Source: a virus. Taken from it: a DNA stretch of 64,000 bases. The stretch is from IMG/VR virus record IMGVR_UViG_3300036773_000146, positions 85,736 through 149,735 of that record. One strand, given 5' to 3'. The position numbers and the translations under genes were made by a program. This document shows positions 6,338-63,884 of the stretch, in pieces; position 1 is the stretch's first letter; every line of letters begins with the position of its first letter. The notes under the pieces are model-generated. The model did not search any database. It was not told the origin of the DNA and saw only the letters and a list, made by a program, of their open reading frames with translations.

Positions 6338-6430
6338 TGCGGCTCCGGTGCGCCTGTGCCTGTGGGCATGAACATGGTGCTGCTCCTGATCACTGCCCCC
6401 GCCCTGATGGAGCGGGGGCCCTCGGCGAGG

Positions 6431-6862
6431 TCAGAGCATGGACGAAATCCTGGCGGCGAACACGGGGTCACTGGTCTTGTGGAAGCGAGCCACCGAGACC
6501 GGCGCGCCGAGCCACTCGCCACCGGCCTGCTCGAAGGCGTACCGGGCGATGTCCATCCCCAGTCCCTCCCAGCGAGCGGCGAACCCCATGAAAACGGTGT
6601 TTTCCTTGCGGACGTCACGCGGGAACGGCCCGTGGACGGCCAGCAGCTGTTCGATCACGTAGTCGCGGACGTGTTCCCACTCGTAGGAGCCGGACGCGTC
6701 TACGTCATTCTTCGGGTCGTGGGCGGGCTCCTGGGGTGCAGGAGCGACGGCCGGGATGACCGTGACCCGCTCCTGCACCATGGGAACCTCAGCCCGGACT
6801 GTCTGGACCTCTGCGGCTTGGGTCGTCCGCGCACGGTCCGTATCGGTCTGGAAGTTCAGCAC
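6431..6862 (-). CDS. Hypothetical protein
   Basis: AGGAG before the GTG start; high GC3. Confidence 0.7.
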   Translation of the reverse strand: MLNFQTDTDRARTTQAAEVQTVRAEVPMVQERVTVIPAVAPAPQEPAHDPKNDVDASGSYEWEHVRDYVIEQLLAVHGPFPRDVRKENTVFMGFAARWEGLGMDIARYAFEQAGGEWLGAPVSVARFHKTSDPVFAARISSML

Positions 6863-6912
6863 CGGTTCTCCTCATGGTCGAATGCTTATCTGCCCAGGTC
6901 AGAGCAGTCTTC

Positions 6913-7296
6913 CTAACGCCTGTCGAAGACGTTCTTGGTGATCCAGGTCCGGAACCGGATGATCAAGATATCCATCTCGCCCTTGAGGGGCTCCTGATCA
7001 TAGGTGCGGTCCGTGTGGATCTCCAGGTGCGGGACACTGTCTCGAAGCAGGAGATGATGACGCAAGATCTGCTTCTCCTGTTGCGGGGTGTGCTCCGGCT
7101 GGAGGATGAACCAGCAATCGTCGTCGTATCCGGCGAAGTAGCCGGACACGCTGGCGGCCTCTGAACCACGGATGTAAGCCGTGATCTTCTGGCCCCTGAT
7201 CGTGGCCCGGCCGAGCTGACGGAGCATCGTCGTCGCGGTGTCCCGCAACGGTGTCAGCTCCTCGTCCGTGCCAGGATCGATCGGCGTGCTGGGCAC
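6913..7296 (-). CDS. Hypothetical protein
   Basis: AGGAGG RBS upstream; globular-looking sequence. Confidence 0.7.
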   Translation of the reverse strand: MPSTPIDPGTDEELTPLRDTATTMLRQLGRATIRGQKITAYIRGSEAASVSGYFAGYDDDCWFILQPEHTPQQEKQILRHHLLLRDSVPHLEIHTDRTYDQEPLKGEMDILIIRFRTWITKNVFDRR

Positions 7297-7350
7297 AACG
7301 TCCTCCTGGTGTCATATCCCTGGGGCACCCATTGGGTGCTCCGGAAGTGG

Positions 7351-8301
7351 CTAGGGCTGGCTACCACTCCTCTCCGCCCGGTCGCGGCGCAACGAATGCC
7401 CCGGCAGCCGGGTCTTGATCCAGAGCCGGTTCGCCTGGTGGCGGGCCAGCAGGGTGGTCAGTTCATACCGGCGGAAAAAGATCTCCACCGGGTCACCCGG
7501 AGTGGCCTCGTCGTGCTGACGCAGCCGGGTGGGTTCGGGGGCGGGCAGGAGCGGCGTCGCCACGAGCAGGTCCACCAGTTCGACGTTCGTGAGGATCCGG
7601 TCCCGCTCGGAGGGGTATTCCTCCCGCAGGGCGCGGTCGAGATTCCAGTCGTACCGGGCCAGCAGGGCCAGGGCACGCTTGGGGCCGACCCCGGCGATAC
7701 CGATGACATTGTCGGAGGAGTCGCCGCGCAGCGCGGTCACCAGCGGCCAGCGGCGGGGCGTGCAGCCCAGCTCGGCCTCGACCCGGTCGGCGTCCCAGTA
7801 GTCCGGGCCGGTACTCAGGTCGGGGAATCGCCGGACGATGGTGTGCCCGTCGAACGGATTCTGCCCGGCCAGCTGGAGCAGGTCCTTGTCCCCGGAGACG
7901 ATGATGATCTCCTCTTCGCCGACGATGGAATTCCACCAGCCCGCGATGAGGTCATCCGCCTCCTCATCCGGGCGCCAGGCGCTCTGGATACCCGCGCGGG
8001 TGAGGAAGTCCCGCATGGCCGCGAAGGTGGCGTCCTTGGCGAACTCAGGGGCCTCTTTCCGGTTGCCCTTGTAGCTCGCCGACAACGCGAGCCGCCGAAC
8101 ACTGCGGCCGTCCCAGGCCACGGCCACGTGGCTGGCGTCCTCTCCGCCGACGATCTTCGTGAGCATGTTGACGAAGATCATCAAGGCACCGGTCGGCACA
8201 CCGTCATCCGTGGACAGCGCCGTACCCGAGGCCGAGGCCGCATGCACGGCCCGCATGGCCAGATTGTTGCCGTCGATAAGCAGATACTTGCTCACGGTCA
8301 C
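7351..8301 (-). CDS. 5'-3' exonuclease / flap endonuclease (PolA N-terminal-like)
   Basis: LLIDGNNL, VAWDG, YKGNR, EADDLIA, SGDKDLLQL, GDSSDNVIGIAGVGPKRA. Confidence 0.92.
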   Translation of the reverse strand: MTVSKYLLIDGNNLAMRAVHAASASGTALSTDDGVPTGALMIFVNMLTKIVGGEDASHVAVAWDGRSVRRLALSASYKGNRKEAPEFAKDATFAAMRDFLTRAGIQSAWRPDEEADDLIAGWWNSIVGEEEIIIVSGDKDLLQLAGQNPFDGHTIVRRFPDLSTGPDYWDADRVEAELGCTPRRWPLVTALRGDSSDNVIGIAGVGPKRALALLARYDWNLDRALREEYPSERDRILTNVELVDLLVATPLLPAPEPTRLRQHDEATPGDPVEIFFRRYELTTLLARHQANRLWIKTRLPGHSLRRDRAERSGSQP

Positions 8302-8708
8302 TCGCCTCTTTCCGGCTGGGCCAGCCCCGAAAGGACTTTCAGTGCGATGTGATTGAGCAGGTCCTGCAAGAGAACGGGCGCGGAATCACGCCGTTGCGGG
8401 CCGGTGCTGGGCAGCCGCTCGGACTCGTTGAGCCGCTCCAGGCACATCTCCAGGGCGCGGGACAGTTCCTCGCGGACGACGTCCTGCGGGTCCGGGCGCG
8501 GCCCGTGCACCGTCGGCGCGATGTGCTGGCACTGTGCGCACAGCGGGGTGCCGTCATGCGGGCACTCGTAGAGCGCCTCGTACTTTTCACAGCTGGCGCA
8601 GATCAAACCCAGGTGCGCAGGGCACCGGTGCTCGTCGCCCTCGGGCATGCTCTTGCAGTACGAGCTGTCCCGCAGGCCGTAGCCGCAGATCCCTCGGTCG
8701 CCGGTCAC
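8298..8708 (-). CDS. Cys-rich hypothetical protein
   Basis: Several CxxC/CxxH motifs; 4-bp overlaps with both neighbours. Confidence 0.65.
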   Translation of the reverse strand: MTGDRGICGYGLRDSSYCKSMPEGDEHRCPAHLGLICASCEKYEALYECPHDGTPLCAQCQHIAPTVHGPRPDPQDVVREELSRALEMCLERLNESERLPSTGPQRRDSAPVLLQDLLNHIALKVLSGLAQPERGE

Positions 8709-9268
8709 TCGGACTCCTTGTCGTTCAGGAAGGTGATGTCGCGCTCGGCGCGCAGCAGGGCCGTGGAGGCCTTCTTGATGTCGGCGCCGTAGCTCGGCAT
8801 CGGCCGGTCGTCGTCGGCGTGCTCCATCTGGTCCAGGACCAGGGTGATCACCTGGCGGCGCACCTGGGACGCGCCGTTCCAGTGCTTGACCAGGAATCCG
8901 CCGTCACCGATCTCGTACAAGTTCAGGATGGCCACGGCCTTGACCACACGGATGGTCATGGCGAACTGCAAGGCGCTGATCGCCCGGTCGGCGAGCAGGA
9001 TGTGCGCGAGGTTCTCGACGTCGTGCAGGCCGAAGCGGCGATGGCCGGAATCGGTGCGGGGCGGGTCGTAGGTACCCCGGCGCTCGACCAGCCGCTGACG
9101 CAACCACACGGTGCTCTTGCCGAAGAAGACGTGTGCGACTTCCATCGCGGTGAACGTCGGCTTCTGACCGGCGGCCAGGAACATCTCCTCGGTCACCCAG
9201 CGCGGTCTGTCCGGCGGAGTGAGGACGCCTTCGCCGGAGACGACGAACGGCTCGATCGGGTATTGCAT
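8705..9268 (-). CDS. MerR-like HTH DNA-binding protein
   Basis: FTAMEVAHVFFGKSTVWLR...PPRTDSGHRRFGLHDVE; GGAGG before the ATG. Confidence 0.65.
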   Translation of the reverse strand: MQYPIEPFVVSGEGVLTPPDRPRWVTEEMFLAAGQKPTFTAMEVAHVFFGKSTVWLRQRLVERRGTYDPPRTDSGHRRFGLHDVENLAHILLADRAISALQFAMTIRVVKAVAILNLYEIGDGGFLVKHWNGASQVRRQVITLVLDQMEHADDDRPMPSYGADIKKASTALLRAERDITFLNDKESE

Positions 9269-50853: not shown

Positions 50854-51600
50854 TCAGGCCAGGCCGCTGAGGTAGACGGCCAGATCCTGAGTGCACATCG
50901 CTTCGTCCAACTCGTCGCGGCCGAGCACGGCGAGTCGCCGATCTTCGCGGAACTTCCTCCAGCGGGCGGGGTCGCTCTCGTCCGCGATGCCCTTGACCTC
51001 CACAGCCAGCTCCAGGCTTGGGACCCAGAAGTCCGGGGCGTACCAGCCGTCCGCCTTCCAGAGCACACCGCTCTCCCGGGCGAACCGTTCTACGGTGATC
51101 TTCCGGAAGCCGCACAGGCCCCAGAACAGCGCCTCCCAGGTCGAGTCCAGAACGACTGCCTCATCCACCACGATGTGCCTCTTCAACTTCGTGTGCCGCT
51201 GGGCGCAGGTGTTTGAGCAGTACTTGTGGTACTTCCCGTAGCTCTTCCGCCGGGTGACCGTCTCCCCGCACCCCTGACAGGTGAAGGTCAGGTAGTTCTC
51301 GGGATCGGCCTGCTTCTTCTTGCCGTACAAGGCTCGGCATTCCGGCGAGCAGTACTTAGTGGTGGCGCGCACCTCGTACGGAATCCGTCCCTCGCCACAG
51401 CTGCACTGCGACTGCGGACTGGCATCCCATGCTCGCCTCTTCTCCTGACCGCGTTCTCGGTTGATCTCGGTCATATGGCACTTGCGAGAGCAGAAGCGCT
51501 GAACGGCACTCCGAGCCTCGGTGAGCCTGCTCTCAAAGGGCTTCTGACACTCGGACAGCGCACAGATCTTGGTAACAACAAGGGCCTCGGTTCGAGTCAT
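50854..51600 (-). CDS. Free-standing PD-(D/E)xK endonuclease with repeated zinc ribbons
   Basis: Three CxxC...[FY]CS..C repeats, then DSTWE...YAPDFWVPSLELAVEVKG; lower GC3. Confidence 0.8.
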   Translation of the reverse strand: MTRTEALVVTKICALSECQKPFESRLTEARSAVQRFCSRKCHMTEINRERGQEKRRAWDASPQSQCSCGEGRIPYEVRATTKYCSPECRALYGKKKQADPENYLTFTCQGCGETVTRRKSYGKYHKYCSNTCAQRHTKLKRHIVVDEAVVLDSTWEALFWGLCGFRKITVERFARESGVLWKADGWYAPDFWVPSLELAVEVKGIADESDPARWRKFREDRRLAVLGRDELDEAMCTQDLAVYLSGLA

Positions 51601-51656: not shown

Positions 51657-52688
51657 TCAGGTTGCCGCAGGCACCGTCAGAGGAGTGCTGGAGACAGTCT
51701 TCGTAATGGTGGCCAGGCCCCTGGGATTGAGCACTGCCATGCTCACCATCTCGTCGAACACCCAGCCCTTCCAGAACGACTCCACCGTGTGGTTCTCCTC
51801 CACGTCGAGGGAGTAGAGCACCGGGAAGACGCCGAGGAAGTTCGGCTCGGGCGCGAGGAAGATGGTGCCCTGCGGGACCATGATCGAACGCTGGATCTGG
51901 AACTCGCCGAACGAGGTGATCGACTCACCGGCGACGACGCGGTCCTTGAAGGCCCAGCCGGTGTCGTTGATCGTCCACTGGTACAGGTCCCGGTAGTCCT
52001 GCGGGTTGACCAGCAGCCGGGCCGACTGAAGCTCGTGCATGTCGGTCAGCGAGACGGCGGCGTACAGCGCGGCCGGGGTGAACTGCGTCCCCGCCTGGGT
52101 CACCCGGTGGTCCGGGGTGACCACGTGGTCCGCGCGGTTGGCGTAGGCGTTGACCGCCGCCTGGAGGATGAGCATCAGGCGGGCATCCTCCTGCTTGAGG
52201 ATGCTCTGCTTGGTCTCGTCCTGGGCCTGCTCGACCGCATTGATCCGCAGGTAGACCAGGTCTTCCTTGCGGATCGCGGGGAACGAGGCGATCCGGAAGA
52301 ACCGGATCGGCACGCGCTTGCCCTCGAAGGCGTTGATCCGGACTTCGCCCTCGTGGCCGGACATGATGTAGGCCTGGCCGAGGTCGTCCCACACGTCGTA
52401 CTCGACGGGGGTACCCGGGGTGACCGGGTCCTCCATGAGCACGTTGCGCGTGATGCCCTGGTAGCGCAGCTTCAGCTGGATCGGGCCGACCATGCCGACG
52501 CCGAGGCGCCGGATGCCGTTCGCGCCGTCCTGGAGGACGAGGGCCAGCTTCTCGGTCTTGGCGGTGTGGGTCAGGGTCTTGCCCTGCTCCCGCAGCGACA
52601 TGATGTCCGAGACGTAGTCGTCCGACTTCCTGGCCGTTCGCTTGAGACCACCGGAGAGACCCGGCGTGGAAACGAGAGCAGTGCTCAT
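51657..52688 (-). CDS. Major capsid protein
   Basis: 343 aa; HK97-like ending (LLVNPQDY..., EMVSMAVLNPRGL); position after scaffold and decoration genes. Confidence 0.85.
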   Translation of the reverse strand: MSTALVSTPGLSGGLKRTARKSDDYVSDIMSLREQGKTLTHTAKTEKLALVLQDGANGIRRLGVGMVGPIQLKLRYQGITRNVLMEDPVTPGTPVEYDVWDDLGQAYIMSGHEGEVRINAFEGKRVPIRFFRIASFPAIRKEDLVYLRINAVEQAQDETKQSILKQEDARLMLILQAAVNAYANRADHVVTPDHRVTQAGTQFTPAALYAAVSLTDMHELQSARLLVNPQDYRDLYQWTINDTGWAFKDRVVAGESITSFGEFQIQRSIMVPQGTIFLAPEPNFLGVFPVLYSLDVEENHTVESFWKGWVFDEMVSMAVLNPRGLATITKTVSSTPLTVPAAT

Positions 52689-52718
52689 CTTCGGTATTCC
52701 TTTCTGGCTCTCGCCGGG

Positions 52719-53285
52719 TCAGGCGACGTCGCTCGCCCAGTTGGGGTCCAGACCGCCGATGACGATCTGGGTGGACGACACGATCTTCAGCAGGCGGCCC
52801 ACCGGCTTGTCGGTGATCGTGGTGCCCGGGGTGCCCGCGCCGACCGGGCACAGCTGGCCCCGCTTGGCGGTGGTGATGTAGGCGTACACGAGCGGCGCGA
52901 AGCCGGTGCCCGGGTCGACCCACGTGGCGGTGGAGTCCATTGCCGGGGCCGAGACCTGGAACTCCGCGTCGGGGCTGAGGACCCACACGGCGCAGGCGTT
53001 CACGCCACCCTGGTTGGAGATCTCCGACTCGACGCCGGTGACGCCTTCGATGAAGGCGGCCAGCCCGTACGGGGTCTTCGGGCCGGTGGTGCCGTCACCG
53101 ACGACCGTGACGAGGTCACCGATCGTCTTGGCCATCGCCATTCCGGCGCTCACCGGCACGGCAGGGACGCCGTTGGTGTAGAACGCCGGGTCGAGGTAGA
53201 CGGCCTTCGGGGTGCTCTGGCTGAAGGCGTACAGGGGCTTCAGCGTCCGGTGGTACTGGGCGTTGTCGAGCGTGGTCCGGATCAT
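52719..53285 (-). CDS. Capsid decoration / minor head protein
   Basis: Beta-rich; between scaffold and major capsid. Confidence 0.6.
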   Translation of the reverse strand: MIRTTLDNAQYHRTLKPLYAFSQSTPKAVYLDPAFYTNGVPAVPVSAGMAMAKTIGDLVTVVGDGTTGPKTPYGLAAFIEGVTGVESEISNQGGVNACAVWVLSPDAEFQVSAPAMDSTATWVDPGTGFAPLVYAYITTAKRGQLCPVGAGTPGTTITDKPVGRLLKIVSSTQIVIGGLDPNWASDVA

Positions 53286-53398
53286 GATCCTCTTTCCCTC
53301 CTCCATGAGGATGAAGGTGTAGCGGCGGAGGGCATCCCCGAGGACCGGGCTCGCTCCCTCTCTCGAAGGTTGAGCGAGCTTGAATTTCCCGTTGAACA

Positions 53399-53439
53399 GG
53401 AAAAGACCCCGAAATCCAAGCCGATTTCGGGGTCTTTCC
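53399..53439 (-). terminator. Intrinsic terminator after the scaffold gene
   Basis: AAAGACCCCGAAATC...GATTTCGGGGTCTTT stem with a T-run. Confidence 0.75.
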
Positions 53440-53453
53440 GTGGCGCTTGCGGA

Positions 53454-54404
53454 CTACGAAAGGAACAGGTCCGTGGCGTCGTCCGTCATCGAGTGCGTCG
53501 AGCGGGAACCGCCCGACATCGGCGGCGCCTCCCGGCGCGTGGCCGTCCGGGGCACCAGCGACGGGTTGCGCTGCGACGAGGCCTGCGCGCGCTTGCGCAC
53601 GGCAGTCAGGGTGATGATCTCCTGCTCGATGTGGTCGGTCGACAGCGCCGCGTCCTTCTCGATCCGGGTGGCCAGTTCGAGATCGGCGCCCTCGGTGCCC
53701 GGCTCGACGTCGTGCAGGCCCGCGCTGATGCGCAGCCGAGCCAGGCGCAGGGACGCCATGGTGCGGTTCGACGCCTCCTCGGCCAGCTGCTGTGCGGTCT
53801 TGCGGGACGCGGTCCGCTGGGCGTTGGCGAAGCCACCCTGGAGCGGGAACGCGGTCTGCGGGTTCATCGGGTCGCCGACGCGCACATCGTGCTCGGTGCG
53901 GGTCTCCGACAGCGGCCGCTGGGTCTGCGTACCGTCGACCGGCGCGGTGACGTCCTGAAGGTTCCGGAAGGCGGGGGCCGGGATGTCCTGGCCCGGGGTG
54001 TAGTTGGTCGTGGTCACGTCGGCGGCCACGTCGTTGGTCGACCCCGGCACCAGACCCGGCGCGGTCACGTCGGCGAAGGCCTCCGGCGTCTTGGTTTGGA
54101 CGGTGCCGTCGACTGCCGGGACGGCCGGGGGCTCCGGGACCGGCTCGGCCGGGTTCTCGACGTCGGCCTGAACGAACTTCAGACCCATCGCCGAGGCGAC
54201 GTGACCTTCCAGACCGGCGATCCGGGACAGGTGCTGCAAGCCCCGGGTGAGCCGGTTGATCTGGTCCTGCTGGCGCTCGGCGACCTTGAGCAGGTTGGAC
54301 AGGTCCGAATCCTGCGCGGCGGCGGTCTTGCGCTGCGTCTCCGCCAGCCGGACGATCATCTGCTGCTGCTCGTCGAGAGCCTCGATGGCCTTACGTGGTG
54401 CCAT
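53454..54404 (-). CDS. Scaffold-like protein
   Basis: Coiled-coil N- and C-terminal parts; between protease and capsid; ends DDATDLFLS. Confidence 0.65.
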   Translation of the reverse strand: MAPRKAIEALDEQQQMIVRLAETQRKTAAAQDSDLSNLLKVAERQQDQINRLTRGLQHLSRIAGLEGHVASAMGLKFVQADVENPAEPVPEPPAVPAVDGTVQTKTPEAFADVTAPGLVPGSTNDVAADVTTTNYTPGQDIPAPAFRNLQDVTAPVDGTQTQRPLSETRTEHDVRVGDPMNPQTAFPLQGGFANAQRTASRKTAQQLAEEASNRTMASLRLARLRISAGLHDVEPGTEGADLELATRIEKDAALSTDHIEQEIITLTAVRKRAQASSQRNPSLVPRTATRREAPPMSGGSRSTHSMTDDATDLFLS

Positions 54405-54460
54405 GATCTACTCCTTAAACCTTCAATCGTGGCGTGGGTTCTTGGGCCGACGGCCCAGGT

Positions 54461-56875
54461 CTACTGGTTGGGCTTCTTCTTGCTCTTCGGAACAGGAGGC
54501 GCGTCGTCCTCGTCGTCGGGGTCCTCGTCATCGGCCTCGTCGTCGAGCGGTCCGTCGGTGGACTTCACCGCGACACCGGGCGCGTCCTGCTCGTCCTCGT
54601 CGTCGGGCTTGGCCTCATCGCCGCCGGTCGGGGGCTCTTCCTCGTCCTCGCCGACCTGGCCGCCCTGATCGGCGACCTCCGGATCGACTGCACCTTCGGC
54701 GGCCTCCTCGTCCTCCAGGGTGTCCTGGGCCTCCAGCACACCCTCACCGCACACGGGGCACAGGTCGCCCTCGGCGGCCCCCAGGCCCTCCTCCGACTCG
54801 CCAGCGGCCACGTCAGGCGCCGCCTCGTCGGTATCCACGGACTCCGGCGGTGCCTGCGGGAACTCGGTGCCGCAGGCCGGGCAGATCAGGGTGCCGCCGG
54901 ACTCGTCGGCCATCTCGCGCTCGGGATCCGGGATCTGGGTCTGGTCGTAGGCCTGCTGCTCCTGGCGGAGGTCGATCTGCTTGGCCTTGTCCAGGTTCGG
55001 GTCGTTGAACGGGCTCGGCGGCGCGACGTAGCCGCACACCCGGCACCGGCTGCCGTCGTAGGCGTTGTCCTCGCCGCAGATCGGGCAGCTCTCCTCGCGC
55101 AGGGTGTCGACCTTCGGCGGCGCGACCTGCTCGCCATAGGCGGTGCGCCGGGTTCCCTTACGGGCCCGTACGAAAGGGCGGCGGCCCCGAGAGGACTCCT
55201 TGACGTACCCGGTTCCCGGGCCTCCCTGTTCGATGCCGTGCTCGTTGCGGAAGCCCTCCCAGGCGTCCTCGGCCTTGGTGCGCGACACCTGGCGGCCCTT
55301 GTTCAGCCGGACGTCGTTGCCGGTGGCGTTCTTCTCGCCCTCCTGGTTCAGCCGCTGGCGCACGAGCCACGTGGTGGCCTGCACCGCATGACCCGGTACG
55401 TGCTCGCCCTCCTGGTCGGAGATCCGCTTGCTGGCCTGGTGGTAGGCGTCCACCACGTGGTCGTATCCGGCCGAGCGGGGGATCGTGCCGTCCCTGCGCC
55501 GGGACGCGGCCGCCACCGGCGCCGAGCCGTAGTCCTCGTTGGACAGCCGCTTGCCCGCCGCGACGCCCAGGGCGTGCCGGTCGATGACCACGTGGGCCTG
55601 GTAGTCCGGATGCTCCGGCGGGTGCTCGTCGCCACCGTGCTCGATCAAGTGGCCGAAGTCGCGGATCTTCGGGCCGGACACGGCCTCGTGCATGTGCGCG
55701 CCGCCGAGCACCTTGTCCATCGAATTGGCCTGGCTCTTGGAGGCGAACATCCCACTGCCGGGACCGCCGATGCCGTGGCCCTCGTGCAGGGCCCGCGCAG
55801 CATTGTGCATGTTCCCGGCCCAGCCCTGCTGCGGGCTGTAGATCGCCAGGGCCGAGGCGCCCAGATGCGCATCCCCGAGCGGGTGGCGGGCGTCGGTGTC
55901 GGACTCCTTCTTGCCCGGCCGCACCGGGGCCAGCTTGGCGATCGACTTGCCCACCAGGTGCGCGTCGGCGTACCAGCGCTTGCCGGAGGCTTTCTCGTCC
56001 GGCGTCGCCTGGTTCCAGTGATCCACGATGTTGTCCGGGTGCACCGGATTCGCCTGGAACCACGGGTGCTCAGAGGGGTGGCTGTACCGCGCCGCCTGCA
56101 TGGTCAAGCCCAGCTCGGCGAACTGCGGTCCGGCGTCGACCGTCCGGAAACTGCTCACGACGTTGATCCTCTCGCGGGAAGCCGTGCGCTGGAGCCCGGC
56201 AGTCAGGTGTTCCAGACCCGGCCCGGCAACGACGCTGCCGGTCACATAGGCCGTCGGGTCGGCGGGCGGCTCGACCAGGAGCGAGTTCTCGAAGAACTTC
56301 AGCCCGTGGCAGACCTCGTAGATGTACTTGCCCGGCTGGCCGGAGGCGAAAAACTTGCGGCCCTTCTGGCCGGGGATGTGCTGGCAGTACGAGAACGTGT
56401 CGACGGCCTTGTTTCCGCAGGCGCTACAGATCGAATAGTCGACGTCCACACCCATGCTGGTGCGCTCGATTTTCTTCGCCAGGATGGCCCGCGCGAGCTT
56501 GGGGTAGGTCAGCCCGTCGATCTCGTGCAGGCCCTCGACCCAGGTGTCCGGACTGCCGTCCGGGTTGCGGTGCTCGTGCAGGACCGCATCCACGATCACG
56601 CCGCGCATCTTGCGATGGTTCGAGTTGTGATGGTTGACGAAGGCCGGTTTCCCGAGGAACGTCTGCCAGCCGTAGCCCGGCCGGGTGTCGGCGATCTGCT
56701 CGGCCGGGAAGCCGTCCCAGTTGTCGTTCACCCGGGAGCTGATCATGCGCGACGGAACGTACAGGTAGCCCTCGCGGGGCTCGTACTGGAACTCGTGCCG
56801 GGCGGCATCCTTGATCAGCCCGGTGCGGGGGTGCACCTGGGCATCCAGGATCTGCCCGAAGGCCCACTTCCGCAT
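54461..56875 (-). CDS. Prohead (capsid maturation) protease with inserted cargo domain and zinc-ribbon/acidic tail
   Basis: VNDNWDGF, FLGKPAFVNH, TSMGVDV.YSICSACGN, FFENSLLVEPPADPTA; C-terminal CxxC ribbons. Confidence 0.8.
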   Translation of the reverse strand: MRKWAFGQILDAQVHPRTGLIKDAARHEFQYEPREGYLYVPSRMISSRVNDNWDGFPAEQIADTRPGYGWQTFLGKPAFVNHHNSNHRKMRGVIVDAVLHEHRNPDGSPDTWVEGLHEIDGLTYPKLARAILAKKIERTSMGVDVDYSICSACGNKAVDTFSYCQHIPGQKGRKFFASGQPGKYIYEVCHGLKFFENSLLVEPPADPTAYVTGSVVAGPGLEHLTAGLQRTASRERINVVSSFRTVDAGPQFAELGLTMQAARYSHPSEHPWFQANPVHPDNIVDHWNQATPDEKASGKRWYADAHLVGKSIAKLAPVRPGKKESDTDARHPLGDAHLGASALAIYSPQQGWAGNMHNAARALHEGHGIGGPGSGMFASKSQANSMDKVLGGAHMHEAVSGPKIRDFGHLIEHGGDEHPPEHPDYQAHVVIDRHALGVAAGKRLSNEDYGSAPVAAASRRRDGTIPRSAGYDHVVDAYHQASKRISDQEGEHVPGHAVQATTWLVRQRLNQEGEKNATGNDVRLNKGRQVSRTKAEDAWEGFRNEHGIEQGGPGTGYVKESSRGRRPFVRARKGTRRTAYGEQVAPPKVDTLREESCPICGEDNAYDGSRCRVCGYVAPPSPFNDPNLDKAKQIDLRQEQQAYDQTQIPDPEREMADESGGTLICPACGTEFPQAPPESVDTDEAAPDVAAGESEEGLGAAEGDLCPVCGEGVLEAQDTLEDEEAAEGAVDPEVADQGGQVGEDEEEPPTGGDEAKPDDEDEQDAPGVAVKSTDGPLDDEADDEDPDDEDDAPPVPKSKKKPNQ

Positions 56876-56932
56876 ACGCCGTCACCGCCCTCTCGCTCGT
56901 TCATTGGGCGGCCGGGCGGTGACGGGCGACAG

Positions 56933-57874
56933 TCAGGACGTAGGAGGAGCGCTCGACGAGGGAGTGACCGGCGCGGCGCAGCTGTACTGCGGGTTCGAGT
57001 AGTCGAAATTCGCCACCCGGGAGCAGGTGGACACCTTGCCGTTGGAGTAGGTCTGGGTCCAGCCCGTCGGCGGTTCGCCGTTGTTGCCCGGCGGGCCAGG
57101 GGGCAGTGCGCCGAGATCGGTGGCACTGCCGTCGGTGTAGTTGACGATCAGGTGTCCGTTCACGATGCCCACGCTGGAGATCCCCCGGCCGTCCTGACCG
57201 TTCGCGCCGTTGGTCCCATTCACGCCGTTGACGCCGTCCTTGCCGTCGCGTCCGACCACTTGGCCCAGGTCTTCAGACGTCCCGTCGGAGTAAGTCAGGG
57301 TTAGGTGGCCGTTGCCGATGGACGAGCCGGTGATACCGCGCCCGGTGTCGCCTTTGACGCCGTTCTGGCCGACAATCTGGCCCTTGTCCTCGGTGGTGCC
57401 GTCGGAGTAGGTGACCTGGAAGCGGCCGCCGACGATGGCCGTCGAGGCGATCCCCCGCCCGTTCGCACCGGTCGAGCCGGTCTTCCCTGGCTGTCCGGTG
57501 CTTCCGGCTGCCGGAACGGGGATGGCGGCGATGATGGCCTGCTTGAGCTGCTGGGCCTCCGCGCACGAGCCGGAGTCGGTGAGTGTTTTCTTCGTCTGAT
57601 CGTCACCGAACAGGCACTGCTCCAGGGTGCGGTCGCTGAGCTGACTCGCTTGGCTGGCGAGGTCCTGCTTGGAGGAGACGGCCTGGTTCTTCTCCTGGGT
57701 GGCCGTGTCGGCAACCGACACGGGGACGCTGTAGATCCCCGCCATGATCACTACTGCCAGACCCGCACCGGCGAGGGCGCTCAGCCAGCTTCCGCGCCGC
57801 TCGCGCCGCTTTCCGGCGTAGTACTCGCGGACGAGGTCCTGGGCTTCGGGGGTCAGGGTCTGGTCATTGCTCAT
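56933..57874 (-). CDS. Membrane-anchored collagen-like protein
   Basis: N-terminal TM segment; G-x-x triplets; 3 copies of a GRGI..(S/T)..GHL.(V/L)TYSDG repeat. Confidence 0.75.
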   Translation of the reverse strand: MSNDQTLTPEAQDLVREYYAGKRRERRGSWLSALAGAGLAVVIMAGIYSVPVSVADTATQEKNQAVSSKQDLASQASQLSDRTLEQCLFGDDQTKKTLTDSGSCAEAQQLKQAIIAAIPVPAAGSTGQPGKTGSTGANGRGIASTAIVGGRFQVTYSDGTTEDKGQIVGQNGVKGDTGRGITGSSIGNGHLTLTYSDGTSEDLGQVVGRDGKDGVNGVNGTNGANGQDGRGISSVGIVNGHLIVNYTDGSATDLGALPPGPPGNNGEPPTGWTQTYSNGKVSTCSRVANFDYSNPQYSCAAPVTPSSSAPPTS

Positions 57875-58193
57875 GGTCGGTCCCCTCAAGGGGAAGTTTG
57901 GGTACCCTGACACCGGATTGAATCAGAGTTCGTCGGTACAAGGCCGCGAGGTCCTCGGACTTCATCGCGGTCTTGCGGTACTTCGCTGTCTCCGCTTCGG
58001 CATTATCCGCCCTCTTCTCTGCTTCGTCGGCACGGGATTTGGCACGGATATTCTCCGTCTCCAGCCGACCGAGGGCGGAATCCTCATTTTCGATCTTGCC
58101 CTTGCGACGGCTGTCGAAGATCTTAGCGATCGTCGCAATCAGCGTGGCCAGGCCACCGCCGAAGATCGCTCCCAGGATGAGTTGAAGGTTCAC
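57864..58193 (-). CDS. Single-TM coiled-coil membrane protein
   Basis: LILGAIFGGGLATLIA TM followed by a charged coil; AGGAGG RBS. Confidence 0.7.
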   Translation of the reverse strand: MNLQLILGAIFGGGLATLIATIAKIFDSRRKGKIENEDSALGRLETENIRAKSRADEAEKRADNAEAETAKYRKTAMKSEDLAALYRRTLIQSGVRVPKLPLEGTDHEQ

Positions 58194-58618
58194 TCCTGGC
58201 CTCCTGGAGGCGCCAAGGGAGTGCGAACCAGCTGCCACAACTCGATGTAGCGCCGGGCCAGCAGGAAGACCAGAGCCACGATGGAGGCGAAGACGAACAG
58301 GTTGCCCGTGACCACCTCGGAATGCCCGGCCTTGATCGTCTGAACCAGGCGCGCCACCAAAATCACTGCGTAAGCGAGATATCCGGTCAGCAGCAGCGTG
58401 ATGCCCAGCAACTCCACGCTAGTCCTACGCAGCAAGGCTGCAATGGCCCCCATAGCCCCTCCAGCGGTCAGGCATGAGGCCCAGACGTAGATCCACACAA
58501 TCCAGCTCACGAGCTGGAAGCTCGCCAGCGGGATGAAGAACGACATCACGGCCGAGATGCACATGAACAAGTACGCAGAAAAAAGGAGGCCGCGCGGCAA
58601 CGGCTTCATCACCACCAA
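58190..58618 (-). CDS. 4-TM membrane protein
   Basis: Four hydrophobic stretches; TAAGGAGG RBS. Confidence 0.75.
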   Translation of the reverse strand: MVVMKPLPRGLLFSAYLFMCISAVMSFFIPLASFQLVSWIVWIYVWASCLTAGGAMGAIAALLRRTSVELLGITLLLTGYLAYAVILVARLVQTIKAGHSEVVTGNLFVFASIVALVFLLARRYIELWQLVRTPLAPPGGQE

Positions 58619-58643
58619 AAACCTCCTTACGTCGTGGACGGGG

Positions 58644-58811
58644 TCAGCTACCCGCGATATGCAGGAAGGCGAACAGGGTGCCCAGGAAGCCGACGAACGC
58701 CGCGACGTGGAACATCAGCGGGCTGCGATAGGTGGGCACGAATCGCCACAGAACGGCATGTAGGAAGATCAGCACCAGGGCGATGATGACCAGGATGGCG
58801 GCAAGGGACAT
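58644..58811 (-). CDS. Small 2-TM membrane protein
   Basis: AAGGAGG RBS; MSLAAILVII... Confidence 0.7.
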   Translation of the reverse strand: MSLAAILVIIALVLIFLHAVLWRFVPTYRSPLMFHVAAFVGFLGTLFAFLHIAGS

Positions 58812-58841
58812 GATTTCCTCCTTCGTCACGAATTGGGCATG

Positions 58842-58880
58842 AAAAAGGGGTCCGGGTACAGGCGACTCCGGGACCCCTTT
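58842..58880 (-). terminator. Intrinsic terminator overlapping a late-promoter-like motif
   Basis: AAAGGGGTCC...GGACCCCTTTTT on the - strand. Confidence 0.65.
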
Positions 58881-58893
58881 GGTCACACTCCGG

Positions 58894-59301
58894 TCAGTTC
58901 ACGTAACTCATGCGCACCAGCAGGCCCTTGACCGCCGTCTGCATCTCGTCGGTGGTCAGAGAGACCGAGGGGTCGCCCTGCACCTTGGCCAGCAGAGCGC
59001 GGTAGGCCTGCACGGATTCGGGGATGCCCCAGTTCGGGTCGGGCACATGTGCGTCGATGGCCGCCTGCACCTTGGCTCGATCCACGGAGGAGGGCACCAC
59101 CCACAGGTAGCTCTCGATCGTGGCGCCCGGCATGCCCGGCGTGGCGGACGTCGTGGCCATCTGCACGGGACTGCCGAGCGCCACGCCCAGTTCCTGCAAG
59201 AGCTGCTGCTGGTTGAACGACTTGTTCAGGTCGAACCGGGCACAGTCCGGGAACGGCTGATAGGGCTCTTCCACCGTCTCGGGCGCGGTCGGGTTGGTCA
59301 T
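58894..59301 (-). CDS. Hypothetical protein
   Basis: GGAG RBS; high GC3. Confidence 0.65.
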   Translation of the reverse strand: MTNPTAPETVEEPYQPFPDCARFDLNKSFNQQQLLQELGVALGSPVQMATTSATPGMPGATIESYLWVVPSSVDRAKVQAAIDAHVPDPNWGIPESVQAYRALLAKVQGDPSVSLTTDEMQTAVKGLLVRMSYVN

Positions 59302-59313
59302 GGCTCTCCCAGG

Positions 59314-61581
59314 TCAGAGGAACAGGCCGGACGGGTCGACCTCGCCGTTGAGCATGGCCTCCTCCAGCAGGGCGTAGTGCGTCCCGTCGATCTTCAGGTC
59401 ACCGAAGTTGCGGGCGCGGGCGTCCTCGGCGCCCTCGTTGATCAGCTCGCGTTGCTCGGCCGGGCTGAACTCGGTCAGAGCCGACTTGCTCAGGTGCGAC
59501 CGTGCGGCCGCCGCGATGTCGTCGGCGTCCGCGTCCGTGGGCATCATCAGGGCCTGCGCGGCCGCCGACTTCTGGAAGTCGGCCACGATCTCCGCCGCCG
59601 TCCGCGACGAGTGGTAGGTGTTCGGGGTGGCCGAGCCGCCGTCCTGCAACGTGATGCCGGGCGTCGACTGGTACGGGTCCGGCTGGGCCTCATCATCCGG
59701 AACCGGGTCGAGGTCCTCCTGGCTGAACTCCGGGTGGTACTCGGCGCCGCCGTCCGTGGAGGGCAGCGCGGGCTCCGGCTGCGCGTGCAGCGTGGAGTCG
59801 AAGGACATGTTCGTGGTGAGGCTGGTCGGGCTGGCGTCGAGGTTGTCCCAGTTGGACGGGTCGTCGGACGTGGCGAACCCGGTGCTGACCGGGTTCTTCG
59901 AGGTGGAGTGCTCCGGCTCGGACAGGTTGCGGCCCGGCTGGCTGACCGTGGTGTTGCTGATCGGGTCCCAGCTGGAGGCCGTTTTGGCCGTGTCCAGGCT
60001 GGCCCGTTCGATCTCCTTCCACGGCGTGTTCGCCTTGACCTCCGGGCGCAGGTTCGGGATCTTCTTTGCGTGCTCGACAGACCACCAGGCAGCCTGCTCA
60101 TGGTGGTCACCCTTGGGGTCGTCAGGGTTGGGCACGACGCGACCGTCCTTCATGGACAGATCCTTCTCGGATGGGATCACCACCACGTGGCCCTGGTACA
60201 CCCCATTCGGACTGGTCCAGGTGTGCTTGACGACGCCGTGCAGCGGAAACTCCTGGCCAACCTCCTCTTCGAACTCGCGGATGCCCGCGTGCAGGCTGGT
60301 GAGGTCGCCGGACTCGTGGTGGCCACCAGGCATTTCCCAGGTACCCGCCGCCGGATCCTTCTCGTCCTCCAGGCCGCGTTGGAGCATCAGCACGCGGCCG
60401 GTGTCGTGCGCTTTCAGGGCGATACCGGAGACCGTCGGGCCGGGAGTGTCTTCCTTGGCCGCGAGCACCGGGCCCAGCTCGCCAGCGTCCACCATGTCCA
60501 GCGCAGCCTCATGGTGGCCCTCCTCGACGTGTGCGGTCTTCCACAGCTCGCGCGCGGCGGCGTGCTTCATACCGGTCTGGATCAGGGTGCCGATGATCTC
60601 GGCCGGGTCGACATCGTCGGCCCGGAGGTGGGCCACGGCCACGGCGGCCAGCGAGCCTTCGTACGGGCGTGCGAAGACACTCTGCCCGTTGTCCGGGTCG
60701 TACTTGACCACGGTGGGCACCGTGCGCGCGGGCTCGGCCGGATGGATCTCCTTGCCGAACATGCCTTGGGACTGGGCCTCGAACTGGAGGGCCAGGGCGT
60801 GCGAGCACTTGCGGCCCTCGAAGTGCTTGAAAGCCGGGGACCGGTCGAAGGCGTAGGCGGCCCAGGCGCAGCCGCAGGTCCAGTCGGCGACCTTGTGCGT
60901 GCCGGGCCGGAACACGAGGATCGCCTCGTAGGTGTGCTTGTCGCCCTTCACCTGGCCGCCGATGCCGTCGTTGGAGGCGATGACGATGGTCACGCCGCCC
61001 TCGGCGCGGATGCGCTTGGCCTTGCGCTGCACGTCGGCCCATGACGCGGTGACTTCGAAGCCCAGTTCCCGGTCGCGGGCGGCGGTACGCAGGATGCCCA
61101 TGAAGTCGAGGTTCTTGCGGGCGCGCCACTTCGCCTCGTCGGTGGGCCGGTGCAGGTCCTCCAGCGCGGCGTTGGCCGGATGGTCGAGGTTCATGTGCGG
61201 TCCCGCCGGATCCTCGTACTTGTCCAGGAAGGCTTGGCCGGACGGCGACTTGGCGCCGTGATCGAACATGTGGGCCGGGTGCTGGCCGCGCAGCTCGTCC
61301 ATCATGGCCGAGCCGACACCCCGGCCCCGATCGCCGTACGTCTTGATCATGTGGATGGCGACGGTCGGATGCGGGTGGCCGTCGGGAGTCGCGCTGTAGT
61401 TGAGGATGCCGTCCGGACGACCCCGCTCGCTGCCGGGCAGGTGGGCGTAGATCTGCCGATGCGCCCAGCCCGGGTGCGTTTGCTCGTTCTCGTACTCGTA
61501 CGGATCGATGCCGGTCGTGAAGCGAAGGCCCTCCGGCGGCTCCGGGTGGTTGCGCGAGGGCATCGCCGTGCGGTGGTCCAT
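59314..61581 (-). CDS. Multidomain head-region protein: GNAT-like, SWIM zinc finger, Nudix, acidic tail
   Basis: RGRGVGSAMM...SPSGQAF; WTCGCAW...KCSHALA; WEMPGG...AGIREFEEEVG Nudix box. Confidence 0.8.
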   Translation of the reverse strand: MDHRTAMPSRNHPEPPEGLRFTTGIDPYEYENEQTHPGWAHRQIYAHLPGSERGRPDGILNYSATPDGHPHPTVAIHMIKTYGDRGRGVGSAMMDELRGQHPAHMFDHGAKSPSGQAFLDKYEDPAGPHMNLDHPANAALEDLHRPTDEAKWRARKNLDFMGILRTAARDRELGFEVTASWADVQRKAKRIRAEGGVTIVIASNDGIGGQVKGDKHTYEAILVFRPGTHKVADWTCGCAWAAYAFDRSPAFKHFEGRKCSHALALQFEAQSQGMFGKEIHPAEPARTVPTVVKYDPDNGQSVFARPYEGSLAAVAVAHLRADDVDPAEIIGTLIQTGMKHAAARELWKTAHVEEGHHEAALDMVDAGELGPVLAAKEDTPGPTVSGIALKAHDTGRVLMLQRGLEDEKDPAAGTWEMPGGHHESGDLTSLHAGIREFEEEVGQEFPLHGVVKHTWTSPNGVYQGHVVVIPSEKDLSMKDGRVVPNPDDPKGDHHEQAAWWSVEHAKKIPNLRPEVKANTPWKEIERASLDTAKTASSWDPISNTTVSQPGRNLSEPEHSTSKNPVSTGFATSDDPSNWDNLDASPTSLTTNMSFDSTLHAQPEPALPSTDGGAEYHPEFSQEDLDPVPDDEAQPDPYQSTPGITLQDGGSATPNTYHSSRTAAEIVADFQKSAAAQALMMPTDADADDIAAAARSHLSKSALTEFSPAEQRELINEGAEDARARNFGDLKIDGTHYALLEEAMLNGEVDPSGLFL

Positions 61582-63884
61582 CAGTCCTCCGTACCGAGTG
61601 CCGTGCGCATCTGGGCGGCGATGCGGTGCAGGGCGGCCGTGCTCTGCGGCGTGCGGGCCAACTGCTCCGCGCGCTGTTTCATGGCTTCATCACGACGCTG
61701 CTGGCGTTCCGGCGTCATGACCTCGGCGAGATCGATCCCGGGCCGCTTGCTCGCACGCGGCGACGGGTAAGGACAGAGGTGGTTGGTGCAGTACTTGGTC
61801 TTCACGCCGTCCGGATGATCCACCCTGTCCAGATGATCTTTGATCTGACTCTTCAGGCTCTGCGCGCGAGTAACTCGTTGCTGGGCCAGCTCTTCATCCG
61901 AGACCGCGTCTGCATGGCCCGTACCGCCGCAGTCCTCGCACGTCTCACGGCGCATCCGATAGGCATCCGGATCCTCATCGGGGTGGATGTCCTGCTTCTC
62001 TTGGTAACTGGGGTCGGGCTCCTCAATGTCGTAGTGGCCCTTGCCGCCGCACTCCGGACACGGACCGGCCGGGATGGCACCCTCGGCCGTCAGCGAGCCT
62101 TTCGCGTGCATGAGCGCCATCGGGCCCGGCTCCGAGATCGGGCACACCTGCTGCTGCCAGGGTGTCTCCCACGGACACGGCCCCCGGTCCTGGGGGATGG
62201 CCAGGGACACGGCCGTGGAGTCACCGGGGAAGGTGCAGCGAGCCTCGCGGCGCCAGGTGCACCAGTCGTGCCCGGCCAGGGCGGCCGTGGTGTTCAGCGC
62301 TGCGGCAGTGCCTGCAAGTCCTGCTCCACCTTCGCGAGCGCCTGCTGCACCTCGGGCGTCTGCTCCTTGGCCTCCAGCTCCATGCGCAGCTGCTGGAGCT
62401 GTTCCGCGTTCGGCAGCTTCGTCGTCATGGATGCCCTCCAGGTGGTGCCCGACGGCCTGCGCGGCCGGGCTGGGATTCGGCGAGTGATGGTGCTCAGCAT
62501 AAAGCTCGGCGACCAGTTCGTTCGGACTCGTCGCCGCGTAGGTGCCCACGTGGTTGATGATGTGCTCGCGGTTGCGCTGGACCCAGTCGTCCGCATCCTT
62601 GCCGTGCCCCATGCCGTGAAACGGCTCGGCGCCCGGGATGTGCCGGGACACGTCGTGCAGCATGGCCGAGCGTGCCGTGGTGCTTTTCAAGGATCGGTCA
62701 CCGAATTGCTTGTCGTCCATGAAATGGCCGAACTCGTGCGCGGTGACATGCCCGAGTAGTGACCGCGCACCCGACTTCGCGAACCAGGGCGTGTCCGGGT
62801 GGTTGCCCTCGTGCTCATCATGAGCCAGATCGTGGCGGATGGTGATGTCGCCCCGGCCGTACATGCCCAGCGCGTTATCGGGCAACCCGGCATTATCGTG
62901 AGGGTGCTCGATGTTGACCGAGGGCCAGCCGATGTGGTGCCCGACTGCACTGCTCATGCGCCGGATGTTGCCGGACAGGTGGGTCGCCACGGCGGCCTTG
63001 GCGTCCGGACGCACGTCGGCGAGAGTGCGGAAGTTGAACCGGGGCACACCGTGCTCCCGGTGATGCGCGGCCAGCGGGTGGTCTTCGTCGGCGTAGTCGC
63101 TGTTGTCCTCGTAGCGGTGGCTGAGGTGTTCGTAGTGCTGGCTGAGCTTGTCGAAGCGCTCGCCGGGGCTGTCGTCGTGGCTCAGCAGCGGGAGACCGGA
63201 CTCGCGGACCTGGTCGTTCTCTTTGGCGCCCGCCTCGTGCAGCGCGGCCGCCGTGCTCACCCGTGCGTCGAAGTCGATCAGGTCGTTGATTCCGGCCTGG
63301 CCGCCTGCGCCGGACGCGCCCGAGGCCGGATCGACGGTGGCGCTCGGATGGTTCGAGGGGTCACCGATCAGCTCCGGCGTCCACTGCGCGCCGGGGTGCG
63401 CCGACATGGTGCCGCCGCAGGTGGCGCAGGTAGCCTGCTTGACCCGGCCGTTGTCGGTCTGGCCGGTGAAGTCCTGAGAGCCGCAGTACGAGCACGAGTC
63501 CGGCTGGTCGGTGTCCCGCAGCTGCGCACCCTCCTCCGGTGCCTCAGCGGCCTGCTGAGCGGCCGCGAAGGTGAGCTTCCCGGGGTCGGGACGGTCATAC
63601 AGGATGGTCCCTAGCTCCTCGTAGTCCTCCGAGGCCACGTGCAGACCGGCGGCCTCGTGACCGGACGCGGTGCGGGGGTGATGCAGCGCGCTGAGCTGGC
63701 CCGAGGAATAGTCGCCGCCGCCCATGCCGTTGTGCAGCTCGACCCGGTAATTCTCGTTCCCCGGGACCGGGCCGTCGGACACCTCGATGACCGTGCCGGG
63801 GTATCCGTCGACCGTCTGGACCACATCGCCGGGGCGGTGGTCCCAGTACTGGTCGTTGTCCATCGCGTGGCGACGGTGGGTCAT
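61581..63884 (-). CDS. Multidomain head-region protein with zincin (HExxH) domain and zinc ribbons
   Basis: PGDVVQTVDG SH3/KOW-like start; CSYC/CATC; AHEFGHFMD...YAATSPNELVAE; CPECGGKG and CEDCGGTG. Confidence 0.75.
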   Translation of the reverse strand: MTHRRHAMDNDQYWDHRPGDVVQTVDGYPGTVIEVSDGPVPGNENYRVELHNGMGGGDYSSGQLSALHHPRTASGHEAAGLHVASEDYEELGTILYDRPDPGKLTFAAAQQAAEAPEEGAQLRDTDQPDSCSYCGSQDFTGQTDNGRVKQATCATCGGTMSAHPGAQWTPELIGDPSNHPSATVDPASGASGAGGQAGINDLIDFDARVSTAAALHEAGAKENDQVRESGLPLLSHDDSPGERFDKLSQHYEHLSHRYEDNSDYADEDHPLAAHHREHGVPRFNFRTLADVRPDAKAAVATHLSGNIRRMSSAVGHHIGWPSVNIEHPHDNAGLPDNALGMYGRGDITIRHDLAHDEHEGNHPDTPWFAKSGARSLLGHVTAHEFGHFMDDKQFGDRSLKSTTARSAMLHDVSRHIPGAEPFHGMGHGKDADDWVQRNREHIINHVGTYAATSPNELVAELYAEHHHSPNPSPAAQAVGHHLEGIHDDEAAERGTAPAAAHGAGGQGADARGAAGAREGGAGLAGTAAALNTTAALAGHDWCTWRREARCTFPGDSTAVSLAIPQDRGPCPWETPWQQQVCPISEPGPMALMHAKGSLTAEGAIPAGPCPECGGKGHYDIEEPDPSYQEKQDIHPDEDPDAYRMRRETCEDCGGTGHADAVSDEELAQQRVTRAQSLKSQIKDHLDRVDHPDGVKTKYCTNHLCPYPSPRASKRPGIDLAEVMTPERQQRRDEAMKQRAEQLARTPQSTAALHRIAAQMRTALGTED
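62294..62428 (-). CDS. Nested out-of-frame 44-aa helical protein
   Basis: GGAGG RBS; MTTKLPNAEQLQQLRMELEAKEQTPEVQQALAKVEQDLQALPQR; nearly all codons end in G/C in this frame. Confidence 0.55.
   Translation of the reverse strand: MTTKLPNAEQLQQLRMELEAKEQTPEVQQALAKVEQDLQALPQR

Follow-up and report, generated by a model that had tools for sequence, protein, structure and literature searches.

A basic-Thr-Ala motif at module borders of head polyproteins in a Bxz1-like phage is a candidate site of its capsid maturation protease

In bacteriophage T4, gp21 cuts at L/I-x-E, and the internal proteins IPI-III and Alt, the last of which is an ADP-ribosyltransferase, have a capsid-targeting sequence. The protease of phiKZ (gp175) and SPN3US cuts at S/A/G-x-E; numerous head proteins of these phages have in common a short motif at which they are processed, and much protein is ejected. 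The R and M sites of the herpesviruses have the consensus (V/L/I)-x-A|S. Polyvalent proteins are multi-domain proteins that combine GNAT, Nudix, zincin-like, ADP-ribosyltransferase (ART), and Zn-ribbon modules, are encoded beside head genes, and are thought to be delivered with the DNA (PMC5512222). Here we describe a tripeptide, [RK]TA (a basic residue, Thr, and Ala; also called the tag), that recurs in the large head proteins encoded by a 64,000-nucleotide stretch of phage DNA, referred to as the window, which is the final 64 kb (positions 85,736 to 149,735) of IMG/VR virus record IMGVR_UViG_3300036773_000146. Most probably, this motif is what the capsid maturation protease encoded by the phage itself recognizes. 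We estimate at about 0.58 the probability of the reading as a whole, in which this protease would cut the polyproteins at [RK]TA and the resulting cargo pieces would be packaged and delivered with the DNA.

The record is 149,735 bp long with 127-bp terminal repeats and is rated complete. The phage is a soil phage related to the Bxz1-type (cluster C) mycobacteriophages, and the window holds its head assembly module, which includes two cargo polyproteins, p767 (61581..63884, 767 residues) and p755 (59314..61581, 755 residues), a protease polyprotein (54461..56875, 804 residues), and a putative scaffold (53454..54404, 316 residues), all encoded, like nearly all genes, on the minus strand. Sites were read from the translated minus-strand open reading frames (ORFs). 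The two sites in p767 are PRTAS at residue 71 (nucleotides (nt) 63666-63674) and MRTAL at residue 760 (nt 61599-61607), five residues before the stop. There are five in p755: HRTAM at residue 4 (nt 61564-61572), LRTAA at 165 (nt 61081-61089), WKTAH at 348 (nt 60532-60540), AKTAS at 533 (nt 59977-59985), and SRTAA at 660 (nt 59596-59604). The protease polyprotein has QRTAS at residue 230 (nt 56180-56188) and RRTAY at 577 (nt 55139-55147), and the scaffold has RKTAA at residue 26 (nt 54321-54329), QRTAS at 197 (nt 53808-53816), RKTAQ at 202 (nt 53793-53801), and PRTAT at 286 (nt 53541-53549), 30 residues from its C terminus. A single site, KRTAR at residue 17 (nt 52632-52640), is present in the major capsid protein (51657..52688, minus strand; phrog_2522, 3e-99). 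Every [RK]TA motif listed in the original prediction was present in the translations, and MRTAL of p767 is one further site. The residue that follows the motif is usually A, S, or G, and the residue before it is often Q, R, S, or L.

These sites punctuate chains of distinct modules. The p767 polyprotein comprises a conserved N-module (residues 1-103), Zn ribbons, a zincin-like HEFGH domain (residues ~228-490; nt 62415-63203), a Cys-rich block, and CxxC ribbons. In p755, a GNAT-like domain (residues 16-165), a SWIM-type domain (residues 179-350), and a Nudix domain (residues 393-514) are followed by an acidic linker and a conserved C-module (residues 595-755). The protease polyprotein consists of the protease domain (residues 1-230; nt 56186-56875), a DUF7178 domain found by Pfam (residues 281-506), Zn ribbons, and an acidic tail (residues 580-804). 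The Nudix domain had been proposed from the sequence, and Pfam bears it out (1.2e-12, residues 393-514). Three other proposed domains stand less firmly: the SWIM-type domain has the CxC...CxH pattern and a weak Pfam match (E 0.36), the zincin-like domain has the HEFGH motif and a weak match to Peptidase_Mx (E 0.074), and the GNAT-like domain has look-alikes in the ESM Atlas but no Pfam match at E ≤ 1. The Atlas structural neighbors of the GNAT-like domain include polyvalent proteins with GNAT and LPD11 domains.

The layout has much in common with the herpesvirus assemblin system (UL26/UL26.5). The predicted protease fold is the same, and the protease lies N-terminal to the scaffold, the two being fused in one chain in loci L012 and L014, which belong to a set of 24 related loci of uncultured phages in IMG/VR (L-numbered) retrieved with the protease domain as query at 52-75% identity. 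As with the R and M sites, candidate sites in the window lie directly after the protease domain and ~30 residues from the C terminus of the scaffold, and Ala followed by Ser or Ala forms the center of the motif. The locus differs from the assemblin system in that a basic residue and Thr precede the Ala, the protease and scaffold are separate genes in the window, DUF7178 and Zn ribbons form part of the protease chain, and two further cargo polyproteins are tagged. With T4 it shares a protease domain whose best structural match is gp21, the proposed concept of head-packaged, protease-processed, and injected enzymes, and, in relatives of the window, ADP-ribosyltransferase modules like that of Alt. 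It differs in having basic-Thr-Ala instead of x-Glu and in carrying cargo in multi-domain polyproteins rather than in single small proteins. The N termini of p767 and p755 contain no T4-like targeting peptide ending in L/I-x-E, and no x-E tripeptide ranks high in the scan described below; despite the lack of such a peptide, the mechanism may be analogous to that of the T4 internal head proteins. Compared with phiKZ and SPN3US, the motif is different, as is the capsid lineage (the window encodes a Myrna-like capsid protein and a TW1-like cement protein), and the window phage is not a jumbo phage; no homologues of the phiKZ inner-body proteins were found for it. The window resembles the polyvalent proteins in carrying Nudix, GNAT-like, SWIM, zincin-like, Zn-ribbon, and DUF7178 modules, to which its relatives add ART, but differs from that description in its punctuation, because the polyvalent-protein study (PMC5512222) proposes zincin-like autoprocessing and no shared motif for a prohead protease.

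Direct homologues in the same order are found in three cultured phages as gp92/gp93 of mycobacteriophage Cali, gp76/gp77 of Rhodococcus phage E3, and gp12/gp13 of Gordonia phage Stormageddon, which are annotated as hypothetical, 'tape measure', 'LysM-like', or 'prohead protease'. They share the SWIM module together with the C-module, the N-terminal protease domain, and a conserved [F/M]-[L/Q]-R-T-A-G-R site 40-45 residues from the C terminus, and they differ from the window in their cargo modules and in the fusion of protease and scaffold in one gene. The literature searched reports neither a function nor processing for them. Head-packaged, protease-processed proteins (T4, phiKZ) and polyvalent proteins are already known. 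The present case stands apart in three respects: the Bxz1-like lineage has a basic-Thr-Ala tag, the tag is placed much as the assemblin sites are, and cultured phages carry it.

In an unbiased scan, RTA was the most over-represented of all tripeptides in eight head proteins of the window genome (12 occurrences versus 2.13 expected, p = 2.6e-6), whereas it was at expectation in the other 168 ORFs (15 versus 15.66); KTA occurred five times in the same eight proteins versus 1.08 expected. The four polyproteins contain 13 [RK]TA sites, compared with 1.77 expected from whole-protein residue shuffles (maximum 8 in 20,000) and 1.9-2.25 when shuffling was confined to blocks of 8-20 residues. Because the block-confined shuffles leave the expectation at about 2, local composition bias is ruled out as the explanation. 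The rest of the genome contains 25 sites versus 24.6 expected. For the longer motif [RK]TA[ASG], the polyproteins have 7 versus 0.5 (15-fold) and the rest of the genome has 6 versus 6.1. Counted against such composition-matched nulls, the motif is enriched in the head polyproteins only. The controls in the window, namely non-basic x-TA, the reversed A-T-[RK], and [RK]TG, were all at expectation, and the enrichment depends on both the basic residue and the residue order. STAAA- and TTAAL-like variants had also been noted around the zincin-like domain, but since non-basic TA is at expectation, they have no statistical support. The codons used at the 14 sites vary (CGA, CGC, CGG, CGT, AAG, or AAA; ACC or ACG; GCA, GCC, GCG, or GCT), so the signal is in the protein, and a DNA motif is ruled out.

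The motif was originally picked by eye in a genome with 67% G+C that is rich in A, R, and T residues, and a chance or compositional artefact of such a proteome, chosen post hoc, might be suspected. This explanation is scarcely credible in view of the first rank of RTA in the unbiased scan, the unenriched 168 other ORFs, the block-preserving shuffles, the independent recurrence of the enrichment in relatives and in three cultured phages, and the association with breakpoints, the last two described below. Among the 20 proteins of at least 450 residues, at least two sites are present only in the head polyproteins and in p1044, a protein encoded near the portal gene. The portal and six large proteins of the structural region, one of 2062 residues, have no [RK]TA versus ~4 expected, which may mean that other virion proteins avoid the tag. 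A 938-residue multi-enzyme protein of the genome was considered as a substrate and rejected; the motif does not mark it (one site versus 0.49 expected).

Comparison of the relatives' proteins with those of the window by BLAST reveals a mosaic in which three modules are kept: the N-module of p767 (residues ~2-103), the SWIM module of p755 (residues ~158-305), and the C-module of p755 (residues ~595-750). In many relatives the kept modules are in a single chain of 937-1700 residues, and the sequence between them is variable. Pfam identifies Nudix domains in the window, L005, L007, and L011, Arr-ms ADP-ribosyltransferases in L005, L024, and L025, and ADPrib_exo_Tox in L007; some protease polyproteins have DUF7178 and others lack it. 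BLAST alignments between polyproteins of different loci have 70 internal ends within 6 residues of an [RK]TA site, compared with 24.4 ± 4.6 for randomly placed sites. When the 280 tripeptides with at least 25 occurrences were ranked by breakpoint association, KTA was first, TAA second, TAS fourth, and RTA eighth, and 60% of KTA occurrences were breakpoint-associated compared with a baseline of 19.6%. The sites are located where alignment gaps open or close and at the edges of alignment blocks. In L024, for example, the Arr-ms domain (residues 708-795) is flanked by KTA at residues 674 and 802. The expectation that cargo domains are swapped between the motifs is therefore borne out by the homologue alignments, in which the modules differ among relatives and the changes fall at the motif.

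The junction between the two cargo polyproteins provides a further example. The stop of p767 and the start of p755 overlap as TGATG (61579-61583), with GGAGGA just upstream, and the two frames form one continuous polyprotein in L011, L012, L016, L018, L019, L024, L025, and L028. Because p767 ends five residues past MRTAL, p755 opens with MDHRTAM, and the genes overlap, the gene split of the window's clade lies at the tag.

After removal of near-duplicates, the related loci contain 109 [RK]TA sites versus 25 expected in the polyproteins and 48 versus 33 in all other proteins. Conserved blocks, such as VCG and NCG in the zinc ribbons, confound a tripeptide scan that pools the homologues, and per-locus scans and the breakpoint analysis were used instead. 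In these unbiased per-locus scans, RTA or KTA ranked first in L009, L011, and L018, second in L013 and L024, and fifth in L007. The cultured phages show the same pattern. In Stormageddon, gp8, gp9, gp12, and gp13, which flank the portal (curated annotation), contain 15 sites versus 2.0 expected, and the other 34 proteins of the first 50 kb contain 6 versus 7.8; E3 gp76/gp77 contain 6 versus 0.93 and Cali gp92/gp93 contain 5 versus 1.76. A site 30-45 residues from the C terminus of the scaffold or polyproteins is present in the window, E3, Cali, and Stormageddon.

Two of the Stormageddon proteins, gp8 and gp9 (4708-9214), are annotated as hypothetical and are encoded upstream of the portal. They have 3 and 6 [RK]TA[AGS] sites, respectively, versus 0.55 and 0.37 expected, and are likely to represent additional head cargo of this cultured phage.

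The N-terminal 230 residues of the protease polyprotein match the PHROG of head maturation proteases (3e-23). Residues His82, His87, His100, and Ser140, the last in the sequence R-T-S-M-G, are invariant in 18 homologues. An AlphaFold model of the domain (predicted local distance difference test (pLDDT) 75.7) was compared with 48,161 chains by VIA-align, and the best matches were T4 gp21 (Z 8.2, root mean square deviation 2.8, 124 residues) and the varicella-zoster virus protease (Z 7.7), a moderate agreement; best Z values of 7-8 are typical even for models that have no clear match. The proteases of Kaposi's sarcoma-associated herpesvirus and human cytomegalovirus gave Z 5.9. The top matches in Foldseek, pseudorabies virus pUL26N and gp21, were weak (E 0.03-0.05), and a sequence search of the domain against PDB chains returned nothing meaningful, so the assignment rests on VIA-align and PHROGs. 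With moderate confidence, the modeled domain can be assigned the fold of T4 gp21 and herpesvirus assemblin. The QRTAS site at residue 230 lies 20 residues past the conserved EPPADPTA sequence at the end of the protease domain.

If the motif is a cleavage site, the enzyme that cuts there might instead be the zincin-like HEFGH domain of p767 or a host protease. The HEFGH signature itself and the proposal that zincin-like domains are autoprocessing modules of polyvalent proteins (Iyer et al. 2017, PMC5512222) would be consistent with this. A homologue of the zincin-like domain is found, however, in only one of the 24 related loci (L005), and strong enrichment of the motif occurs in L007, L009, L011, L013, and L018, which lack such a homologue. 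The scaffold and the protease polyprotein, both classical targets of prohead proteases, also carry sites. A different cutter is improbable on this evidence; the zincin-like domain is rejected as the universal one and looks like cargo.

Two observations on the protease chain of the relatives may be recorded here. Gene calling divides the protease polyprotein of each of the three closest relatives among two or three overlapping ORFs (L005, 9998-12568, with 260, 369, and 257 residues; L006, 2560-5121; L009, 9998-12553), which points to frameshifts, assembly errors, or programmed shifts. In many relatives (L013, L017, L020, L021, and L025), a loop of the protease fold reads YR[R/T]TA[S/A]G (alignment columns 183-190), the window having FFASG; the loop could be an internal self-inactivation site or merely a conserved loop.

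For cleavage by the maturation protease, the following sequence of events is proposed. The polyproteins would enter the prohead via their conserved end modules (residues 1-103 of p767 and 595-755 of p755). The assembled protease would free itself at QRTA|S 230, release DUF7178 at the site at residue 577, and fragment the scaffold at residues 26, 197/202, and 286. The cargo would be cut into separate GNAT-like, SWIM, Nudix, and zincin-containing pieces, which would be retained beside the packaged DNA in the head and pass into the host along with it. By analogy with the A|S sites of assemblin, the cut probably falls after the Ala. Packaging is suggested by the gene position, by the polyvalent-protein precedent, and by fusions of Nudix homologues, in Arthrobacter phages Sonali and Mufasa8 to the portal/MuF protein and in Pseudanabaena phage Pam4 to a capsid protease. 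For delivery into the host and any role against host defense, both of them proposals, the analogues are Alt and the internal proteins of T4 as well as phiKZ/SPN3US.

The motif is not invariant at orthologous positions. Following the protease domain, most relatives have G-L-Q-x-T-A-[S/M]-[R/K], in which x is Arg only in the window's clade. The capsid site KRTAR is present at residue 17 in the window, as originally listed, but the corresponding sequence in relatives is R-[V/I]-A-[R/K]-K or RKQA, so that it is not conserved as RTA. In the relatives, [RK]-x-A-[ASG] with x other than Thr is enriched 2-fold in the polyproteins and not elsewhere. From this fuzziness at orthologous positions, the rule is likely to be a basic residue, any residue, Ala, and then a small residue; this phage strongly favors Thr at the second position.

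Several observations, in addition to the moderate fold match, weigh against cleavage at the tag by the maturation protease. In distant relatives, LRTAA 165 corresponds to L-[T/S]-x-A-A; in close relatives, PRTAS 71 corresponds to SRA, SRSA, or TTAA, and AKTAS 533 to K-[Q/A/T]-A-[S/A]. In the C-module, the FQRTAG and LAKTA[L/V]K sites of the family read FQKSAA and LSKSAL in the window, where SRTAA is found ten residues upstream of the family-site position. RTA and KTA are not among the top eight over-represented tripeptides in L012, L016, L019, L021, L025, and L028, and the upstream polyprotein of L025 (1288 residues) has no [RK]TA site. The YRRTASG sequence of some relatives is inside the protease fold, so some matches cannot be linkers. 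The AlphaFold model of p755, from a 13-row alignment, is poor (pLDDT 42), only the SWIM module (residues 179-350) being confident, and is inadequate to present the sites as exposed linkers. No recognizable capsid-targeting sequence was found, nor any Pfam MuF or LPD match at E ≤ 0.01 in the window proteins, and the literature searched contains no reports of processing, N termini, or virion content for these proteins in Bxz1-like phages.

An alternative is that the motif is a border short linear motif that is not cleaved and has another role, for example in binding to the portal, the scaffold, or the inside of the capsid, or as a conserved linker or helix-start element that the shuffled modules bring with them. 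In its favor, the sites are fuzzy in relatives, and several of them fall not in clearly disordered linkers but in predicted helices or conserved blocks, namely H160-168, H340-349, the C-module helix with FQ-x-TA, and the loop with YRRTASG inside the protease domain. The ordered tripeptide is nevertheless far above local composition, and its placement after the protease domain, near the C terminus of the scaffold, and several times within the scaffold and cargo is the layout known for protease substrates; furthermore, there is no longer repeated context around the motif, which a shared structural element would require. We consider the non-cleaved motif unlikely, although less so than a different cutter. 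The original prediction, in which [RK]TA is the maturation protease site and swappable domains are packaged as effectors, is partly supported; it gains from the enrichment in head polyproteins, the module exchange at the motif, and the gp21/assemblin fold, and is weakened at the capsid site, in the non-basic variants, and in the relatives that are not enriched.

If the tag is a cut site, it gives a substrate rule for an uncharacterized gp21/assemblin branch that looks nearer to the herpesvirus Ala|Ser sites than to the Glu sites of T4 and phiKZ. It would also give a first functional reading of the largest unannotated or misannotated genes of Bxz1-like phages, among them Cali gp92/gp93 ('tape measure'), E3 gp76 ('LysM-like'), and Stormageddon gp8, gp9, and gp12, and it predicts that Nudix, GNAT-like, ADP-ribosyltransferase, and zincin enzymes are carried into actinobacterial cells at infection. 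The relatives are cultured on Mycobacterium smegmatis and Gordonia terrae, and the prediction is open to routine virion proteomics. More speculatively, and in our view less likely than not, the whole Bxz1-like family (>200 cultured cluster C mycobacteriophages, the Gordonia and Rhodococcus relatives, and many soil phages) might use one basic-Thr-Ala code read by an assemblin-fold protease whose Ala|Ser specificity resembles that of herpesviruses. The tag would then be a plug-and-play junction: any enzyme module placed between two tags would be taken up in the T=16 capsid, released by cleavage, and injected. On this view the giant 'hypothetical' proteins would be exchangeable racks of anti-host and anti-defense payloads, with gene fission and fusion occurring at the tags.

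In the direction of transcription, the head module spans the ends of the record and comprises p1044, the portal (735 residues, phrog_2833, 3e-141; outside the window), p767, p755, several small genes, the protease polyprotein, the scaffold, the cement protein, and the capsid protein. The cultured relatives share the order of portal, large protein, large protease-containing protein, cement protein, and capsid protein, and the protease gene lies between the portal and the scaffold/capsid genes in the window, the 24 relatives, and the three cultured phages. A DNA-level search of the region against GenBank phages gave no match; the major capsid protein is ~58% identical to the capsid proteins of Cali, Myrna, E3, and Stormageddon. 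Myrna has a T=16 capsid with gp98 as its minor capsid protein (PMC7150772). The minor capsid (cement) protein of the window (52719..53306, minus strand; Pfam PF23968), which has no motif site, is of the same family as Myrna gp98 and corresponds to it by synteny and size.

The p1044 protein (contig G000, 2516-5650, minus strand; 1044 residues) is encoded outside the window, two genes upstream of the portal. It has 3 [RK]TA sites versus 0.74 expected (p = 0.04) and no similarity to Stormageddon gp9; although considered as a member, it is not counted as part of the feature. Its LAGLIDADG domain (Pfam 1.2e-8) is located in an apparent intein-type insert (residues ~575-892) that ends ...LTGN|C. The core is similar to Cali gp102, an SFRTAHG site is 34 residues from the C terminus, and the first ~120 residues resemble a mis-called start.

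The genes between p755 and the protease polyprotein encode a 135-residue protein, two small membrane proteins, and a collagen-like protein of 326 residues. The stretch at 56933-58886 (minus strand) includes the gene of the collagen-like protein, which matches the PHROG 'collagen like minor tail'; this gene holds the same place in several relatives (L005-L009, L016, and L019). The two small proteins, each with multiple transmembrane segments, are at 58190-58618 and 58644-58886, and an ORF with a transmembrane segment and a coiled coil is at 57864-58238, all on the minus strand between the cargo and protease genes. Directly downstream of the capsid gene is an HNH endonuclease-like gene (50854-51600, minus strand), and Cali gp96 is likewise placed.

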